Both the position numbers and the translations under genes were made by a program. This document shows positions 15,715 to 23,866 of a DNA stretch of 44,857 bases, one piece after another. Every line of letters starts with the position of its first letter. The stretch's first letter is position 1. The notes below the pieces were generated by a model. It ran no database searches. It was not told where the DNA came from and saw only the letters and a list, made by a program, of their open reading frames with translations. The stretch lies in the NCBI GenBank assembly GCA_947465215.1, contig CANHZX010000003.1:1-44857 (forward strand). Direction: 5' to 3'. The stretch comes from Betaproteobacteria bacterium. GTDB taxonomy: Bacteria > Pseudomonadota > Gammaproteobacteria > Burkholderiales > SG8-41.

Positions 15715-18315
15715 ATGCGCTTCGACAAATTCACCACCAAGTTCCAGCAGGCCTTCGCTGACGCACAAAGCGCGGCGGTTGGCGGCGACCATGCCTATAT
15801 TGAACCCCAGCACCTGTTGCTGGCGCTGATCAATCAGGACGATGGCGGCACAGCGTCGCTGCTGCAGCGTGCCGGCGTCAATGTTGCCGGGCTGCGTGGC
15901 GCGCTGAAGAGCGCACTGGAACGTCTGCCCAAGGTCGAAGGCACCGGCGGGGAAGTTACGATCTCGCGTGATCTGGGCAATCTGCTCAATCTCACCGACA
16001 AGGAAGCGCAGAAGCGCGGGGATCAGTATGTCGCCTCCGAACTGTTTCTGCTGGCGCTGACCCAGGACAAGGGTGAGACCGGTCGTCTGCTCAAGCAGTT
16101 CGGCGGTGACCGTTCGCCTATCGAAAAAGCGGTGGAAGGACTGCGCGGTGGCGAAACCGTCGGCAGCGCAGATGCAGAAGGCAGTCGCGAAGCACTGAAA
16201 AAATACACCATGGATCTGACCGAGCGAGCGCGCGCGGGCAAGCTCGATCCGGTGATCGGCCGCGATGATGAAATCCGCCGCGTGATCCAGATCCTGCAGC
16301 GCCGTACCAAGAACAATCCGGTGCTGATCGGCGAACCCGGCGTCGGCAAGACCGCCATTGTCGAAGGCCTGGCCCAGCGCATCATCAACGGCGAAGTGCC
16401 GGAGACGCTGAAGAACAAACGGGTGCTGTCTCTGGACATGGCGGCACTGCTCGCCGGCGCCAAATACCGGGGTGAGTTTGAAGAGCGTCTGAAATCAGTT
16501 CTCAAGGAAATCTCCCAGGATGCCGGCCAGACCATCGTCTTCATCGACGAGTTGCACACCATGGTCGGTGCGGGCAAAGCCGAAGGCGCAATGGATGCGG
16601 GCAATATGCTGAAGCCGGCGCTGGCGCGTGGAGAGTTGCACTGCGTCGGCGCGACAACGCTCGACGAATACCGCAAATACATCGAAAAGGATGCAGCTCT
16701 GGAGCGCCGTTTCCAGAAGGTGCTGGTCGACGAACCGTCAGTAGAGTCTACGATCGCCATCCTGCGCGGCCTGCAGGAAAAATATGAATTGCATCACGGC
16801 GTGGAGATCACCGATCCGGCGATTGTGGCGGCCGCAGAACTGTCGCATCGCTATATCACCGATCGTTTCCTGCCGGACAAGGCCATCGACCTGATCGACG
16901 AAGCGGCATCACGCATCAAGATGGAAATCGACTCCAAACCGGAATCGATGGACAAACTCGATCGTCGTCTGATCCAGCTCAAGATCGAGCGTGAAGCGAT
17001 CAAGAAGGAAAAGGACGAAGCTTCCAAGAAGCGTCTGGCGCTGCTGGAAGACGAGATCAAATCGCTTTCGCGTGAATATGCCGACCTCGAAGAAATTTGG
17101 AAGGCTGAGAAGGCGCAGGTGCAGGGCAGTGCGCATATCAAGGAGGAAATCGACCGCATCCGCGTCGAGATCGTCAAATTGCAGCGCGCCGGTAAGCTCG
17201 ATAAGGTTGCTGAACTGCAATACGGTAAATTACCGCAGCTCGAGGCCCAGCTGAAGCATGCTGAGACGGCAAACGCTGCTCCAACCAAACACCGTTTGCT
17301 GCGCACTCATGTCGGCACTGAAGAAATTGCTGAGGTGGTGTCGCGGGCAACCGGTATCCCGGTTTCGAAAATGATGCAGGGCGAACGCGAAAAGCTGCTG
17401 AAAATGGAAGAGCGGCTGCATGGGCGTGTGGTTGGCCAAGACGAAGCCGTGCGCTTGGTATCCGATGCGATCCGCCGTTCACGAGCAGGTCTGGGCGACC
17501 CAAAGCGGCCATACGGCTCTTTCCTGTTCCTCGGGCCGACGGGTGTCGGCAAGACGGAGCTGTGCAAGGCCTTGGCCGAGTTCATGTTCGATTCCGAGGA
17601 TCACCTGATCCGCATCGACATGTCGGAATTCATGGAAAAACACTCGGTTGCACGCCTGATCGGCGCGCCGCCCGGATACGTTGGCTACGAAGAGGGCGGT
17701 TACCTGACGGAGGCCGTGCGTCGCAAGCCGTACTCGGTGATTCTGCTCGATGAGGTCGAGAAGGCGCATCCGGATGTATTCAATGTACTGCTGCAGGTGC
17801 TCGATGACGGTCGCATGACCGACGGGCAGGGCCGCACCGTTGATTTCAAGAACACCGTGATTGTGATGACGTCCAACCTCGGCTCCCAGATGATCCAGGC
17901 GATGCAAGGGGACGACTATCAGGTCATCAAGCTGGCAGTGCTGGGAGAGGTGAAGACGCAGTTCCGTCCGGAATTCATCAACCGTATCGATGAGATTGTG
18001 GTGTTCCATGCACTCGACGAGAAAAACATCAAGTCGATTGCACGCATCCAGTTGGCCTATCTGGAAAAACGTCTGGCTCAGATGGAAATAAAGCTGGAGG
18101 TTAGTGATGCAGCGCTGGGTGAAATCGCTGCGGCCGGATTCGATCCGATCTACGGCGCACGGCCACTGAAACGAGCGATCCAGTCGCAACTGGAAAACCC
18201 GCTGGCGAAGCAGATCCTGGAGGGGCGCTTCGGTCCGAAGGATGGCATCCGCGTTGATGCCAAAAAAGGTGTGATGACCTTCGAAAAGTTGCAGGCTGCA
18301 ACTGTGGCCGCTTGA
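15715..18315 (+). CDS. clpB: ATP-dependent chaperone ClpB
   Basis: 866 aa; two AAA modules ([16 protein letters not shown]), coiled-coil middle domain, GARPLKR. Confidence 0.98.
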
Positions 18316-18358
18316 GCAGTTTCGCAGCACTTTGCGTTAACTGCTTGTTTTTGGCCGA

Positions 18359-18373
18359 TGGCATAAAGCATGC
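18359..18373 (+). promoter_or_regulatory. Putative sigma54 -24/-12 promoter with an upstream IHF-like site (18338-18352)
   Basis: TGGCAT-AAAGC-ATGC gives GG(18360-61)-N10-GC(18372-73); TAACTGCTTGTTTTT lies just upstream. Confidence 0.5.
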
Positions 18374-18384
18374 CACGCTTTGAC

Positions 18385-18644
18385 AAAAAAACATTTGCCA
18401 ATGCATGGTTGCAGGCGTAAAAATGTTTCCAGAGTTACGCAGCACTGGAGTGCCGGTACCGATTCTCCAGCGTGCGAAATTCCGGGCGATCGTCCGGATA
18501 TCGCCTGTCAGGTTGCAGGTGCAAACTGCAACTGGCGCAGCTCCCGAATGGTGTGATGCCATTCACCCAAGGACGTCGCTCTGGCGGCGCCGCGCCGGGT
18601 AACCGGTCGCACCCAAGCCCCGCTTCGGCGGGGCTTTTCATTTT
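18385..18644 (+). ncRNA. Candidate structured non-coding RNA (~255 nt, about 7 hairpins plus terminator); family not recognised
   Basis: Consecutive stems, several with GNRA-type loops, ending in a UUCG-capped terminator; no convincing RBS-led ORF; 5' end inferred from the sigma54-like element. Confidence 0.55.
18615..18644 (+). terminator. Rho-independent terminator
   Basis: AAGCCCCGC-TTCG-GCGGGGCTT-TTCATTTT. Confidence 0.85.
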
Positions 18645-18908
18645 GACCCCTGTTTCTGGAAACCCCACGCGTCGTCAAAGATTTGCCTTCGCTAAGCTGC
18701 TGATTTGGCGTGTATATAAGAGCGAAACCTATCATTTTGGTAGATTTGGATTTCGCCTGGGCATCAATGATTATGTATTTGTTTTTCAAATAATTATGGA
18801 TGCTGACGTGTCCGCAAACAGGGGATGTGCGATGACCGATTACGGCGTTGCGCTTGCGCAGCCATGTTTTCTGCATGACTGCCGCTTCTCTGGCGGCATT
18901 CGCTGATC

Positions 18909-20258
18909 ATGGCCAATGATGAAGAAACACTGTTGCACTGGCTCTCTATAGAGAATGCCAACGACGGTATTTATGTCGTGGATCTGCAAGGCAAGGTGTT
19001 GCATGTCAATCGCGCGTTCTGTGCGATGCTGGGTTATACCCGTGATGAAATGGAGCGCAGCAATGTGCGGGACTGGGATGCGTCTTTTGATCCTGTGCAG
19101 TTGCACAATGAGCTGACCGACCTAACCGATCAGCGCAAGGTGATTCATGCTGCCTACCGCCGCAAGGACGGTTCATTGCAGGATGTCGAAGTGGCCGTTG
19201 CGGTTTCCTACGTGGGTGGCAATGCGGTGGTGCACTGTGCATGCCGTGATGTTTCCGATCATCATCGTGCCAGAGCTGAACTCGCTGAATCCGAGCGGCG
19301 GTTCTCTTCGCTGATGCAGCATTCCAGTGCCGGTGTTTACATCATTCAGGACGGAGCGCTGGTATACGTCAATCCGCGGCTGGCCAGCATGTTCGGTTAT
19401 GCAAAGGAGTCCGACGTTATGGGCCATAAAGTTGAGGACTTCGTAGCACAATCCTGGCGTCAGCAGGTCGTGGAGAACATGAACCGGCGGCTTTCCGGAG
19501 ATTGCCATCGCACACGCTTGGAGTTTGTTGCCATCCGCCGCGACGGCTCCGAATTCGAGGTTTCGGTGGACGGCGCGGTATCGTCTTATCAGGGACGACC
19601 GGCACTGGTCGGGCTGATTGAAGATCAGTCAGACCGTCAGAAAGCCGCTGATGTACTGAAGGCCTATGTATCGAAGCTTGAACTGGCGGTTCTCGGTACG
19701 GTGCAAGTAGCGTCATCCATGGTCGAGATGCGTGATCCCTATACAGCAGGTCATGAGCGCCGCGTCGGCGAGATTGCAGCGGCCATCGGTCGCAAGATGC
19801 ACCTCGAAAGTCATTGCATCGACGGCCTGCGCATCATCGGCCAGGTGCATGACATCGGAAAAATCGGCATACCTGCCGAAATTCTTTCCAAGCCCGGCCG
19901 GCTCTCTCGCAGCGAAATGGATCTGATCCGCGAGCATTCGCAGAAGGGGTATGAAATTCTGAAATCCGTCGAGTACCCCTGGCCGATCGCTGATGCCGTG
20001 CTTCAGCACCATGAACGCATGGACGGTACCGGCTACCCTCAGGGATTGTCAGGCGATCAGATCGGTATCGAGGCCCGAATCATGGCGGTTGCAGATACGA
20101 TCGAGGCGATGTCGGCGCACCGGCCGTATCGCGCCGGCCTCGGCCTGGATGCGGCATTGAACGAAATCGAACGCGGCAACGGCATTCAATACGACACCGT
20201 AACGGCGGAAGCCTGTCTGACGCTGTTCCGCGAAGACCGCTACGAACTGCCGGCCTGA
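18909..20258 (+). CDS. PAS-PAS-HD-GYP cyclic di-nucleotide phosphodiesterase
   Basis: Two PAS/PAC domains (VNRAFCAMLGY...RKDGS; VNPRLASMFGY...RRDGS); RDPYTAGH, HDIGK, HHERMDGTGYP, ADTIEAMSAHRPYR. Confidence 0.92.
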   Translation: MANDEETLLHWLSIENANDGIYVVDLQGKVLHVNRAFCAMLGYTRDEMERSNVRDWDASFDPVQLHNELTDLTDQRKVIHAAYRRKDGSLQDVEVAVAVSYVGGNAVVHCACRDVSDHHRARAELAESERRFSSLMQHSSAGVYIIQDGALVYVNPRLASMFGYAKESDVMGHKVEDFVAQSWRQQVVENMNRRLSGDCHRTRLEFVAIRRDGSEFEVSVDGAVSSYQGRPALVGLIEDQSDRQKAADVLKAYVSKLELAVLGTVQVASSMVEMRDPYTAGHERRVGEIAAAIGRKMHLESHCIDGLRIIGQVHDIGKIGIPAEILSKPGRLSRSEMDLIREHSQKGYEILKSVEYPWPIADAVLQHHERMDGTGYPQGLSGDQIGIEARIMAVADTIEAMSAHRPYRAGLGLDAALNEIERGNGIQYDTVTAEACLTLFREDRYELPA

Positions 20259-21356
20259 TCAAAGTTCCAGCGGCCGGCCGTATCCCGTCAGTTCCAGATA
20301 GCCGCTGCCGATGCGTTTCCCTTTACTGAAAGCCCGCACGGCACCTTCCCAGTAAACAGCGCCGGTCGTCTGCCGGGTGTCGTTCTCCTGGTCATCCATC
20401 AGTGCTTGTAATTCGATTTCCAGGGAACCGATGTTGACGCGGAAGGCCACCGGGTATCGCGTCCCCGTGCGCGGCGATTGCCACAGGCGCAGTGCGGTGA
20501 AACGGATGGCGTCGGCGGTATAAACACGGATGTTGCCGGAGGCCTCGCGCAGCTTGGCAGCCGCCCACAGTGGCTGCTGCGTATTTACCTGACGCATTTG
20601 AAATACCATTAGCGCACCGCCATCATCCAGATTGATGCCGATCCAGTCCCAGCCTGCTGCGGTTTCGGGCAGATAGGCCGAAGACCATTCATGATCCAGC
20701 CAGGCTTTGCCGCTGACTTCGCGAAATACGCCGCTTGTACGCAGAGCTCCGCTGACCTGCAGATGCGGAACGCTGTAGTAATGGCTGGCTGCATCAGCTC
20801 CCGGACCTTTTCGGCTGTAGCCATTGGCACCTTGCAGCAGCAAGGGTTGTGTTGTGTTCATCTGGAGATTGAGCGCCAGTTCCGGCGTTTCGATACGCGA
20901 CTCATAACCGCTGCCGCGCCGGTTCAGTTGCCAGTTGTCGAGCCATACCTTCGTATCGTTTTCGCTTGCGCCGGCCAATCCGAATACGGCACGCGCCGCT
21001 TTCTGGCTATGAATCAGCCTGCTCTGTGCCGGATCGGCGATTGCGGCGTGGGCAATGATGATCTGCTCCGGATTAAAAGCGCTGGGGTTGCCGGCGGGTA
21101 ACTGCGGTCGGGCGCGGAAAAACGTGATCTGGAAGCCGAGTTCGCGCGCATCCTGATCCTGCAGCCAGCCGGTGATGTACCACCACTCGATGCGGAATGC
21201 GGGGTGACTGCCGTGATCCCGGGGAAAATGCAGCAGGTGTCCGGGCTCGGCCTTGGCGGACCTGTTTTGTGTAGCGTTCGCAGAAGCAAGGCCGCCGCTG
21301 CTGCAGTAGGCGGCCATGACGGCCAGCAGCAGGCGTCTTCTTGAGGGACGGTGCAT
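20259..21356 (-). CDS. Secreted lipocalin-like / AttH (CrtC-like) protein with Tat-type signal peptide
   Basis: Start MHRPSRRRLLL (TGATG overlap with the permease stop); FPRDHGSHP, EWWYITG, WLDHEWSS, GWDW, YWEGAV, GYLELTGY. Confidence 0.85.
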   Translation of the reverse strand: MHRPSRRRLLLAVMAAYCSSGGLASANATQNRSAKAEPGHLLHFPRDHGSHPAFRIEWWYITGWLQDQDARELGFQITFFRARPQLPAGNPSAFNPEQIIIAHAAIADPAQSRLIHSQKAARAVFGLAGASENDTKVWLDNWQLNRRGSGYESRIETPELALNLQMNTTQPLLLQGANGYSRKGPGADAASHYYSVPHLQVSGALRTSGVFREVSGKAWLDHEWSSAYLPETAAGWDWIGINLDDGGALMVFQMRQVNTQQPLWAAAKLREASGNIRVYTADAIRFTALRLWQSPRTGTRYPVAFRVNIGSLEIELQALMDDQENDTRQTTGAVYWEGAVRAFSKGKRIGSGYLELTGYGRPLEL

Positions 21357-23866
21357 CACCAGTCCTCGCGCACGGCAGCGACCGTATCGCTGCGCATCAC
21401 GCTGCGCGCACTGACGACTGCGGTAGCAGATGCACAGGCTGCGGTAATGGTGAACAGCACCAGCAGCTGCAGCCAGGGCATGTGCAGTTCCATGCTCCAA
21501 TGAAATGACTGGCGGTTGATGACATGGATCAGCACGATGCCGATGACAGTGCCGACCGCAAGACCGCTCAGTGCGCCCACGCTGGCAGTCAGGGCACCTT
21601 CACCGGCAAGCATTGCGGAAATTTGACCCCGCGTCATGCCGAGATGACGCAGTACGCCAAACTCACGCCGTCGCGCCAGTGCCTGCACGCTGAAAGCCAC
21701 GCTGACGCCAAACAGCCCGACGATCAACGCCGCCAGTTCCAGGGCCCAGGTGATGGCAAAGGTGCGGTCGAAAATGCCAAGGGAAATTTTACGGATGGTG
21801 CTGGCGCTGACGATTTCAATGGCGGCATTGGCTGGCAGGGCCGCGCGCAAAGCCTGCTCAGCAGCGGCTGCTGTCGTATCAGGTGACAGCCGGATGGCGG
21901 CATCGTTGGCGGAATGATCGCGTGTCCAGCTACGGTAAAGATCGCGGCTGACGATTGCAGCGCCGTTCTGCCTCGAATAATCGCGCCAGATGCCGGCAAC
22001 GGTGAATGTGCGAGCAGTTCCGCCAACGGGAAGGGTGACGGTCTGTCCGGTTTTCCAGTCCATGAGGGCGGCGGCGATTTCACTGATCCATAACGCCGGC
22101 GGCGAGTCAGGCAGCAGTGTTGCCGGCGGACTGATCAGGGGGAGTGTGCGGGACACGTCCTCTCCCGGCAGATCGCGAGCGATCAGCGTCAGCGCAGGCT
22201 GATCGGCATGGATCAGCAGGCTCTGGAAGCGCGTAAATGCAACTGATGCCACTCCAGCAGTGGCTGCAATGTGTTGTTGCTCAGCCGGTGAAAGCACCGC
22301 GGTTTCTCCCGCGACGGCAGCCCTCAGATACAAATCCGCCGGCAGAACCTGATCCAGCCAGCTGTCCAGTGACTGACGGAATGAAAGCACCATGATCAGC
22401 ATTGCGACCACCAGGCTGAAGCTGACCAGGATGGCGGCCACGCTGATGGCGACATGTCGTGGCGTTGCTTTCAGCTGGGCCAGCCCCAGTTCAAGCGCCG
22501 GAACTGACGTCAGCTTTGCCGGGGACAGCAGAATGCCGGTCAGTGCCGGCATTAAAAGCACTGCGCCGATCAGCAGCAGCGCGATCGCGCCATAGCCTGC
22601 CAGAGGCAGGCCGCCAAGCGGCGGAAGCAGGGACAGCAGTGCGCCGGTAAGCATGGTGGCCAGACCGGCCGCAATCCACTTCGGACGATGCAGCGTGTCA
22701 TCGTCATCGTGGGCATGCAGTTCGCTGGCGGGTTGGCGTCGCGCCGCATCCCAAGCAGGAACTGTGGCACCGATGATGGCGAAAGCCATACCCAGTCCGA
22801 GAAAGGCGAGCAGCGTCAACGGCTCGACAATCAGCTCGGCATTGAGGTTGCGGAAATAGTCGGCGCCCAGATCGGCGCCGGCCAAGGCCATGGCCTGCAC
22901 GGCCAGAAGATAGCCGCCGCCGAGGCCGATCAATCCGCCGATCAATCCGAGCAGCGCGCCTTCTGCTACCAGCCAGCCCAGCACGGTGCCACGCGTAACG
23001 CCGAGTGCGCGCAGCAATGCGATCTGCGTGCGCCGGCGCAGCAGCGCCAGAACCTGCGAGGAGAACACCATGAACGTGCCGGTGAACAGGGCGATCAACG
23101 CCAGCATGTCGAGGTTGAGGCGGTAGGCGCGGGTGATTGCGAGACCGCGCTCGCTGTCGGTCTGCGGCGTGACAGCATGAACACCCGGTGGCAATTGCGT
23201 TTGCAATTGCCTGCGGAAGGTCTCGGCATCAATGCCTGAAGCGAGCCGCAGATCGATACGGCTGATGAGGCCGGTACGTTCGAATCGCCATTGCATGCCT
23301 GCAATGTCCATCAGCCCGAGGTGCTGGCGATAGCTGGCGTCGGGAATAATCTCGACGACGCGCAAAGGTAAAGGCTTCATGCCGACCTTGAAGGTGACCG
23401 TGCTGCCGACGGCTGCATCCAGTGCTCGGGCTGCACTCGTGGACAGGCGTATGGCATCCGTATCAAACAGCGCGTTGCGTGCGCCATTGTCTGCGCCGGC
23501 CAGTTGCGGTTGCAGTGCATAGGCCCTGAGGGCATCGATGCCGATGATTTTCAGCGTATCGCGGCGGCCGTGGAGTGCGGCCTCCATTTCAAGAACGGGG
23601 CTGGCTGCGACCACACCGGCCATTTTTGCGATCGTCGGATAGAGCTGTTCATCAAAGCCGGTGCGGCCACCCTGCACAACAAGATCGGCTTCGCCGGCCA
23701 ACTGGCGTGCAGCGCGGCCGAACTCTCCGGCAGCACTGGCATTAATCAGGTGAACGGCAAGACCGAGCGCCACGCCGATGGCAATGGCGACGACTGCCAG
23801 CAGCGAGCGTCCCGGCGCAGCGCGCAGGGGGCCGCTGACCAGAGCATGCCAGACGGCGGCGTTCAT
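21356..23866 (-). CDS. ABC transporter permease, duplicated FtsX/MacB-like
   Basis: 836 aa; two MacB-type halves (RRTQIALLRALG; RRREFGVLRHLG) with large periplasmic loops. Confidence 0.9.
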   Translation of the reverse strand: MNAAVWHALVSGPLRAAPGRSLLAVVAIAIGVALGLAVHLINASAAGEFGRAARQLAGEADLVVQGGRTGFDEQLYPTIAKMAGVVAASPVLEMEAALHGRRDTLKIIGIDALRAYALQPQLAGADNGARNALFDTDAIRLSTSAARALDAAVGSTVTFKVGMKPLPLRVVEIIPDASYRQHLGLMDIAGMQWRFERTGLISRIDLRLASGIDAETFRRQLQTQLPPGVHAVTPQTDSERGLAITRAYRLNLDMLALIALFTGTFMVFSSQVLALLRRRTQIALLRALGVTRGTVLGWLVAEGALLGLIGGLIGLGGGYLLAVQAMALAGADLGADYFRNLNAELIVEPLTLLAFLGLGMAFAIIGATVPAWDAARRQPASELHAHDDDDTLHRPKWIAAGLATMLTGALLSLLPPLGGLPLAGYGAIALLLIGAVLLMPALTGILLSPAKLTSVPALELGLAQLKATPRHVAISVAAILVSFSLVVAMLIMVLSFRQSLDSWLDQVLPADLYLRAAVAGETAVLSPAEQQHIAATAGVASVAFTRFQSLLIHADQPALTLIARDLPGEDVSRTLPLISPPATLLPDSPPALWISEIAAALMDWKTGQTVTLPVGGTARTFTVAGIWRDYSRQNGAAIVSRDLYRSWTRDHSANDAAIRLSPDTTAAAAEQALRAALPANAAIEIVSASTIRKISLGIFDRTFAITWALELAALIVGLFGVSVAFSVQALARRREFGVLRHLGMTRGQISAMLAGEGALTASVGALSGLAVGTVIGIVLIHVINRQSFHWSMELHMPWLQLLVLFTITAACASATAVVSARSVMRSDTVAAVREDW

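Follow-up and report, generated by a model that had tools for sequence, protein, structure and literature searches.

A probable new structured RNA gene downstream of clpB in uncultured Burkholderiales, with candidate modes of action

What occupies the 593-nt gap (positions 18316–18908) between clpB and the following HD-GYP gene on contig CANHZX010000003.1 of a Betaproteobacteria bacterium? The stretch analysed, here called the window, is the whole of 44,857 nt. An original prediction had read the gap as a self-contained transcription unit for an undescribed structured non-coding RNA of ~255 nt, starting near 18385 under the control of a sigma54 promoter with a nearby IHF site and perhaps tied functionally to the HD-GYP gene. 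Every sequence string that it quoted is found where it had been placed, and its core survives: we find that the gap very probably holds a genuine, independent gene for a structured non-coding RNA at ~18431–18640 on the forward strand. The unit ends in a UUCG-capped terminator, matches no Rfam family at the gathering score and has homologues that covary. Its promoter, start, length and connection with the HD-GYP gene are placed differently below.

Comparison with relatives delimits the element closely. In BLAST searches, positions 18411–18643 are conserved at 76–92% identity in 18 of 24 genomes of the window's genus (g1; other genera of the family are labelled g18–g29), and the flanks cannot be aligned. 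The region is present in a single copy in the window's genome, hits in the family are likewise single in each genome, and hits to covariance models built from it run over the full model length. The RNA predicted from these comparisons is ~210 nt long (18431–18640, +), from a +1 at C18430/A18431 of the sequence CAGAG to the U-run of its terminator. The same definition applied to the homologues gives a median length of 211 nt with a range of 205–265 nt (46 of 47 loci), in place of the ~255 nt first proposed.

The stretch 18385–18644 has a folding energy of −112 kcal/mol (z = −3.88), which none of 200 dinucleotide shuffles equalled. The expectation that it folds better than shuffled controls is therefore borne out, but the reverse complement folds equally well (z = −4.05), so that neither the presence of an RNA nor the strand can be told from folding energy alone. 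The homologues provide a second line of evidence. A MAFFT alignment of 19 sequences from the genus, which was not fitted to any structure, gives an RNAalifold consensus with compensatory changes in 17 of the 66 pairs that it predicts. Across 43 genomes, pairing holds in 93.8% of cells compared with 30–46% when the partners are slid, 41 of 57 pairs have changed on both sides and none of 500 shuffles reached any of these measures, in an alignment that was fitted to the model. The unfitted 19-sequence alignment agrees with this result in direction. The homologue search and covariation check that the original prediction had called for thus both come out in favour of a structured RNA.

The consensus and the covariation divide the RNA into two domains on the forward strand. 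The 5′ domain (18432–18543) is a four-way junction of helices P1–P4, all of which hold pairs changed on both sides. P1 (18432–40/18535–43), which had been missed originally, closes the junction; P2 (18442–53/18462–73) carries GGUACC in its loop at 18455–60; P3 (18474–77/18501–04 and 18481–87/18492–98) has the loop GAUC; and P4 (18511–20/18525–33) has the loop GCAA. The 3′ domain (18546–18607) consists of P5 (18546–52/18558–64), a single-stranded linker (18565–70), P6 (18571–91) and P7 (18594–98/18603–07), the last with the loop GUAA. Most of the string of hairpins proposed earlier reappears here, namely those at 18445–70 (P2), 18512–32 (P4), 18546–64 (P5), 18571–91 (P6) and 18595–18606 (P7) together with the terminator, and two do not. 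The hairpin GGCGAT/ATCGCC at 18485–18505 shows no covariation and is broken in 22 of 114 cells; it is replaced by the nested pairing of P3, in which 99% of cells pair and three pairs covary. The hairpin at 18389–18428 can form in the window; in 15 of the 19 genus sequences, however, the outer pairs are disrupted, and 120 of 209 cells pair. Its constant cells are promoter bases, and it overlaps the −35 and −10 elements described below.

Might the region instead encode a small protein, either through the 65-aa open reading frame (ORF) at 18405–18602 or through one on the opposite strand? ORFs of 58–77 aa do overlap it in the window. Among the 47 homologues, however, the 65-aa ORF occurs only in the window and in its nearest, 92%-identical relative; the longest ORFs differ in frame, strand and position from one homologue to another, and three homologues contain no ORF of at least 20 aa. 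The alignment also has indels of 1 and 2 nt, and the substitutions in the stems are compensatory. We regard a coding function as extremely improbable.

The predicted transcript is bounded by its own signals. Its promoter (18385–18423, +) comprises an A-tract at 18385–18391, a −35 element TTGCCA at 18395–18400, a 17-nt spacer and a −10 element TAAAAA at 18418–18423 that follows a conserved GGCG. The consensus of the alignment reads TTGAC[G/T], a 17-nt spacer, GCGTA[A/G]AA, 5–6 bases and then the invariant CAGAG with which the conserved RNA begins. Of 47 loci, 41 have the motif (TTGNNN, a 16–17-nt spacer, G[N]GTA[AG]A), 36 of them with the 17-nt spacer; several genera are represented, and a generic promoter scan picks the same site (TTGCCA-18-AAAAAT, 18395–18424). 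The position of this conserved sigma70-type motif places the predicted +1 at C18430/A18431 rather than near 18385. The A-tract and the near-consensus −35 element suggest, as judged from their sequence, that expression may be high. One other loose match to the motif occurs in the genome, at position 16102 of contig C28 (G000, +), as TTGCC-N-GGCGTAAAA.

At the other end, an intrinsic terminator spans 18615–18644 (+), with a hairpin at 18615–18636 of the form AAGCCCCGC-UUCG-GCGGGGCUU followed by UUCAUUUU. A terminator scan scores this hairpin with nine pairs, seven of them G-C. The unit ends as AAGCCCCGC-loop-GCGGGGCUUU, and the pattern CCCCGC...GCGGGG followed by a T-run is found in 41 of 47 loci. 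After a U-run of only 3–4 nt, 36 of 47 loci continue with (Y)CA, in many cases reading CUUUCCAUU (18635–18644 in the window). The end of the terminator can also be read as a helix followed by N-CCA; the single contig from RNA library X3 (below) stops there and continues A-rich.

These signals bear directly on the model of a sigma54- and IHF-dependent RNA of ~255 nt from ~18385, linked in function to the HD-GYP gene. That model drew on a string with the spacing of a sigma54 box, TGGCAT-N5-ATGC with GG-N10-GC at 18359–73, upstream of the RNA. The string coincides with a palindrome, GGCAT-AAAGC-ATGCC (18359–18374, without strand), which is clade-specific and lost within the genus. It is present in the window, in G017 and in one further close relative; in two others of 77–85% identity (G018 and G012) GT stands for GG. 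The region that holds it aligns only in the three closest genomes and has no counterpart in other members of the genus, so the box is kept only in the window and its closest relatives. The supposed IHF site (18338–52) turns out to be the 3′ arm and U-run of a hairpin at the end of clpB. The additional 46 nt required by a start near 18385 hold the conserved sigma70-type promoter and show no covariation as RNA, and an HD-GYP gene lies downstream in only 3 of 19 genus loci. Taken together, this model is highly improbable.

The gap begins immediately after clpB (15715–18315, +; 866 aa; Pfam Clp_N, AAA, AAA_lid_9, AAA_2 and ClpB_D2-small) and ends at a PAS-PAS-HD_5 gene for an HD-GYP-type phosphodiesterase (18909–20258, +; assigned by Pfam), a neighbour that lies outside the RNA unit. 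The tight linkage to the 3′ end of clpB raises the question of whether the element is a cis-acting part of a neighbouring transcript, either a clpB 3′-UTR (untranslated region) element with a role in stability or processing, or a leader or riboswitch of the gene downstream. All 19 genus loci have a ClpB match upstream in the same orientation, and in the wider set the upstream ORF falls in the ClpB cluster in 36 of 47 loci. In six further loci of the 47 the upstream ORF belongs to a minus-strand cluster, which we take to be a putative antisense frame of clpB. The linkage therefore extends to nearly all loci and across genera, and a low-depth contig of RNA library X2 (18315–18571) runs from the clpB stop codon into the RNA. 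Against a cis role, clpB is separated from the RNA by a hairpin and U-run as well as by the conserved promoter. The probable clpB terminator (18314–18352, +) is a hairpin at 18314–18346 followed by GUUUUU, placed directly after the stop codon; the fold of 18300–18352 has −15.3 kcal/mol and the TGTTTTT run is kept across the genus alignment, although a simple terminator scan made no call at this hairpin. In four loci of genus g29 (L060, L061, L063 and L064) an ORF of 176 aa is inserted between clpB and the RNA, and the RNA promoter is still kept. Family genomes that have no RNA carry an ordinary clpB with a short downstream gap. On the downstream side, the genes fall in at least eight unrelated clusters on either strand and are convergent in at least 21 of 47 loci. 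The RNA is thus unlikely to act in cis on what follows it, and the HD-GYP neighbour of the window (3 of 19 genus loci, compared with 19 of 19 for clpB upstream) is incidental. Elsewhere its place is taken by convergent genes for a CrtC-lipocalin or a hydrolase-OsmC protein, or by TctC or PAS-GGDEF-EAL genes. We consider a cis-acting element, on either side, very unlikely.

Is the RNA made? Parts of the stretch are held in 14 RNA-library entries, of which we examined four (X1–X4), each from another study and all as assembled contigs. In X4, a small biofilm metatranscriptome of 37 million letters, there are 12 contigs; the eight listed span 18475–18616 at word depths of 44–1036 and have adapter letters at their ends. 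If these fragments are RNA, a depth of up to ~1000 would rank it among the abundant small RNAs of that community. X3 contributes one contig of 226 nt that covers 18440–18637 and ends in an A-rich loose end. X1 and X2 contain only low-depth pieces, which lie on clpB, the gap and the promoter. Neither X3 nor X4 has cover on clpB or on 18645–18900, though missing contig cover is not evidence.

The distribution of the RNA was followed with two covariance models, R1 built from 18430–18614 and R2 from the 5′ domain of 41 sequences. The sample comprised 151 genomes of one Burkholderiales family, whose members are known only as metagenome-assembled genomes (MAGs); R1 has a single, full-length hit in each of 43 of them, and R2 finds the RNA in 48. 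By genus, R2 hits 28 of 32 genomes in g1, 9 of 21 in g29, 7 of 32 in g20 and the one genome each of g18, g22 and g25; it has no hit in g19 (0 of 29), g28 (0 of 13), g21 (0 of 9) or g26 (0 of 7). Five family genomes without a hit have an ordinary clpB followed by a short gap or by another gene, so that the RNA is truly missing at that site. Outside the family the RNA is very rare or absent in what was sampled: among 151 genomes of the order, R1 found the window's genome, G011 of the same genus and one weak extra-family hit at 24.9 bits, and R2 found the same two family genomes plus two marginal extra-family hits (E = 0.005–0.009). An exact degenerate pattern of P3, run against one genome per species (185,579 species), gave 38 loci, 35 of them confirmed by the model. 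All 35 come from MAGs whose titles name Burkholderiales or Betaproteobacteria or are evidently wrong; the remaining three (Desulfospira, Rhodobacterales and Desulfocapsa) have no model match and are chance occurrences. The pattern also matched 43 metagenome contigs, of which 36 were confirmed. It had no match in viral contigs, and BLAST found no RNA in plasmids. Some of the RNA-carrying MAGs (L071, L077, L079, L081, L082, L086 and L091) bear titles such as ‘uncultured Bordetella’, ‘Bordetella parapertussis’ or ‘Streptomycetaceae’. These look like binning or labelling errors, as in this locus and in clpB they group with the Burkholderiales family.

Several further features of the locus concern its history and its flanks. 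Genes for cyclic di-GMP (c-di-GMP) turnover, of the PAS-HD-GYP or PAS-GGDEF-EAL type, follow the RNA in 8 of 47 loci (for example L085:2321–4027 and L107), and in G042, a genome without the RNA, a similar PAS protein follows clpB. The order of clpB and then a PAS signalling gene therefore looks ancestral, with the RNA lying inside it. A CrtC-lipocalin gene (20259–21497, −) converges on the locus in the window, and its homologue directly adjoins the RNA terminator in 12 other genomes; it therefore seems that the HD-GYP gene was inserted in the subclade to which the window belongs. The 176-aa ORF of g29 (L064:1311–1841, +; starting MNIHQIQM) is conserved and has no Pfam family, and a search with it as query found no homologue in the window's genome. 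Finally, the U-run after the clpB hairpin is complementary to the A-tract before the −35 element of the RNA promoter (18343–18392 in the window; 1700–1790 on the minus strand of L028). In G003 the two together make a long and stable inverted repeat (−39.4 kcal/mol, z = −3.96), perhaps a terminator that is extended or works in both directions, perhaps no more than a T-run that faces an A-run by chance.

How might such an RNA act? The strongest conservation is found in helices with their loops and not in any linear single strand. P3 stands out, with its 3 × 2 internal loop and RANN terminal loop, together with P6 and the GGUACC loop of P2. P6 is nearly invariant in the genus, and in other genera (14 of 43 sequences) its base changes from C-G to U-A. 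The linker (18565–70) has a conserved GGA only in g1. The reading that we favour, tentatively and at somewhat less than even confidence, is that of a stably folded RNA that acts in trans and is recognised by a macromolecular partner, most likely a protein, as a ribonucleoprotein or a decoy. The RNA would be transcribed on its own from ~18431 and would act as a folded molecule, neither as a cis element nor as a classical seed-pairing small RNA (sRNA). The surfaces that the partner recognises would then be P3 and P6, both near-invariant, and the GGUACC loop on P2, and the logic would be that of 6S RNA or CsrB without homology to either. Recognition of the fold is favoured over a linear seed because the most conserved stretches are helices and loops and because simple antisense searches found no target.

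The latter point concerns a different possibility, that of a trans-acting base-pairing sRNA, perhaps assisted by Hfq. Contacts with mRNAs, by pairing or kissing, would be made through the P2 loop CCGGUACC, the P5–P6 linker, the P6 loop or several of these, and the rest would serve as scaffold. Like most proteobacterial sRNAs, this RNA has its own promoter and terminator. Hfq, the sole known sRNA chaperone found, is encoded in the window's genome. The sequence of the P2 loop is kept across genera, as GGTACC in 39 of 47 loci from genomes and in 31 of 35 from metagenomes, and the loop of 8–9 nt persists where the stems have diverged. On the other hand, Hfq binding would call for a longer U-run than the 3–4 nt found before a C, the AAAG that precedes the terminator is paired with CUUU and so leaves no free A-rich site, and the linker differs in sequence between genera, so that there is no conserved linear seed. 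When the window's genome was searched with the RNA by blastn-short, no antisense site was convincing; the best match, 21 nt on contig C53, is in the same sense and lies inside a coding gene. The reverse complement of the P3 3′ strand, searched in 31 genus genomes, had exact hits at the RNA gene and two elsewhere, and allowing one mismatch revealed no second site that recurs. Base-pairing sRNAs do not usually have a four-way junction with invariant helices. We therefore rate base pairing as rather unlikely, if still to be reckoned with.

A complex fold may also have a biochemical role of its own: it might sense a ligand, act as a catalyst or assemble with itself through the GGUACC loop, which is self-complementary. 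The RNA would then belong with raiA, OLE and ROOL. The multi-helix junction and the GNRA-type loops (GCAA in P4; GUAA, GCAA or GAAA in P7) fit this, the strictly conserved 3 × 2 internal loop of P3 could serve as a tetraloop receptor, and one RNA library shows a very high word depth. Self-complementarity is retained in the loop variants GGCGCC, GGGCCC and GGUACU, which would fit loop–loop dimerisation but is no more than a hint. The palindrome is broken, however, in GGCACC, GCUACC and AGUACC and in the g29 loops GUAG and AAUAAC, and some genera have loops other than GNRA on P4 and P7. A scan of all column pairs of the alignment yielded no covarying tertiary pair above phylogenetic noise, the signal being at the level of clades only. 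An intrinsic role of this kind is doubtful in our view. The bolder version, in which the RNA would found a new class of highly expressed, complex-folded RNAs with a novel biochemical or architectural function based on docking of GNRA loops with the P3 loop, self-association through GGUACC or binding of a small ligand, is doubtful to the same degree.

Returning to the independent gene and its favoured trans-acting role, several points weigh against them. The low-depth contig of X2 (18315–18571) spans the promoter region, and clpB read-through or DNA carry-over is possible; more generally, contigs show presence in an RNA library and not starts, strand or level, and DNA may be present in such libraries. 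The −10 element lacks its usual final T, so that the sigma factor is inferred and not shown. Fitting the 43-sequence alignment to the model inflates its pairing counts, and related genomes are not independent. The known sRNA-binding proteins CsrA, ProQ and Ro were not found, with the limits that ProQ/FinO was found in 1 of 151 family genomes and TROVE/Ro was sought in the window's genome (0 matches). The presence of Hfq keeps a base-pairing role open. clpB is the only conserved neighbour, and no functional link to it was found. All carriers of the RNA are MAGs.

If the gene is confirmed, the few structured bacterial RNAs of ~200 nt that have no assigned function would gain a new, well-supported family. 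The host lineage consists of uncultured Burkholderiales from freshwater, soil and groundwater, and as it is known only from metagenomes, culture-based RNA-seq could not have found the RNA. Covariation, a promoter and terminator, single copy and contigs from RNA libraries together make it a clean candidate for Rfam and for biochemistry. Because its carriers are without CsrA, ProQ and Ro, any protein partner is probably new, unless the RNA is a client of Hfq, in which case it is an unusual one. That the RNA keeps so strictly to clpB in different genera hints that it may take part in the stress response. With a narrow distribution and no cultured host, its practical impact is limited.

It remains to place the RNA among known systems. 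Rfam 15 gives no hits at the gathering score over the whole window and no riboswitch hit. When the gap is scanned permissively (E up to 10), rsmX comes first at 25.0 bits (E = 0.015, 18541–18638, cut-off 56), RsmY follows at 16 bits (cut-off 57), and 12 diverse homologue loci reach best scores of 25.8 and 24.5 bits. The weak rsmX, RsmY and istR matches in the gap and in these 12 loci overlap the terminator, and the aligned columns of rsmX are mostly terminator; we reject them. Full-text searches of the literature brought to light no account of an RNA downstream of clpB in Betaproteobacteria, and a motif left undeposited in the supplement of a discovery paper could escape such a search. The motifs of large RNA-discovery papers are generally deposited in Rfam.

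The RsmX/RsmY/RsmZ group (CL00106) does resemble the RNA in consisting of stand-alone multi-hairpin sRNAs with a strong terminator, and the linker in the window carries a single-stranded AAGGA. Rsm and Csr sRNAs, however, expose many GGA motifs in loops, whereas the RNA in the window has three GGA, two of them inside stems (the median is also three in the 47 homologues), and its single exposed GGA is kept only in g1. CsrA (PF02599) was found neither in the window's genome (0 of 1, 94% complete) nor in 101 family genomes, and control genomes gave hits. The original prediction had suggested a protein-titrating scaffold, and the absence of CsrA from all 101 family genomes excludes its best-known form, CsrA titration. 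The sigma54-dependent sRNAs CrcZ, GlmY and Qrr are also stand-alone regulators, and the window has a GG-N10-GC string upstream of its RNA; the box is not conserved, A-rich CA motifs are absent and Rfam gives no GlmY/GlmZ or Qrr hit. The Hfq-dependent GcvB and OxyS are alike in size, in having their own promoter and terminator and in conserved hairpin loops able to kiss targets, and they differ from the present RNA in its short 3′ U-run, its lack of a conserved linear seed, its four-way junction core and the absence of any target found.

A Y RNA in a Ro ribonucleoprotein can be set aside, as the window's genome has no TROVE match, the neighbours are clpB and variable genes and the 3′ end is a terminator hairpin. 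A role as a ProQ client is set aside too, ProQ having been found in 1 of 151 genomes, and so is a riboswitch or cis leader, given the unrelated and often convergent downstream ORFs and the lack of an Rfam riboswitch hit. 6S RNA (RF00013) is closer in kind, a stand-alone structured RNA of ~200 nt; the present RNA, too, is probably abundant and would act by being bound. 6S RNA, however, is a long rod with a central bubble, in contrast to the four-way junction, hairpins and intrinsic terminator found here. The region gives no 6S hit at E up to 10, and a bona fide 6S RNA is encoded elsewhere in the genome (contig C202, 70.9 bits). The raiA motif RNA offers a further likeness, as an independently transcribed structured RNA of ~200 nt beside a stress gene, with a multi-stem junction and invariant internal-loop nucleotides. 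Compared with raiA, OLE and ROOL, the present RNA has no Rfam 15 match, is hosted by Burkholderiales MAGs, is smaller than OLE or ROOL and is confined to part of one family. We therefore classify it as a new family within a known kind, the stand-alone structured bacterial non-coding RNA.

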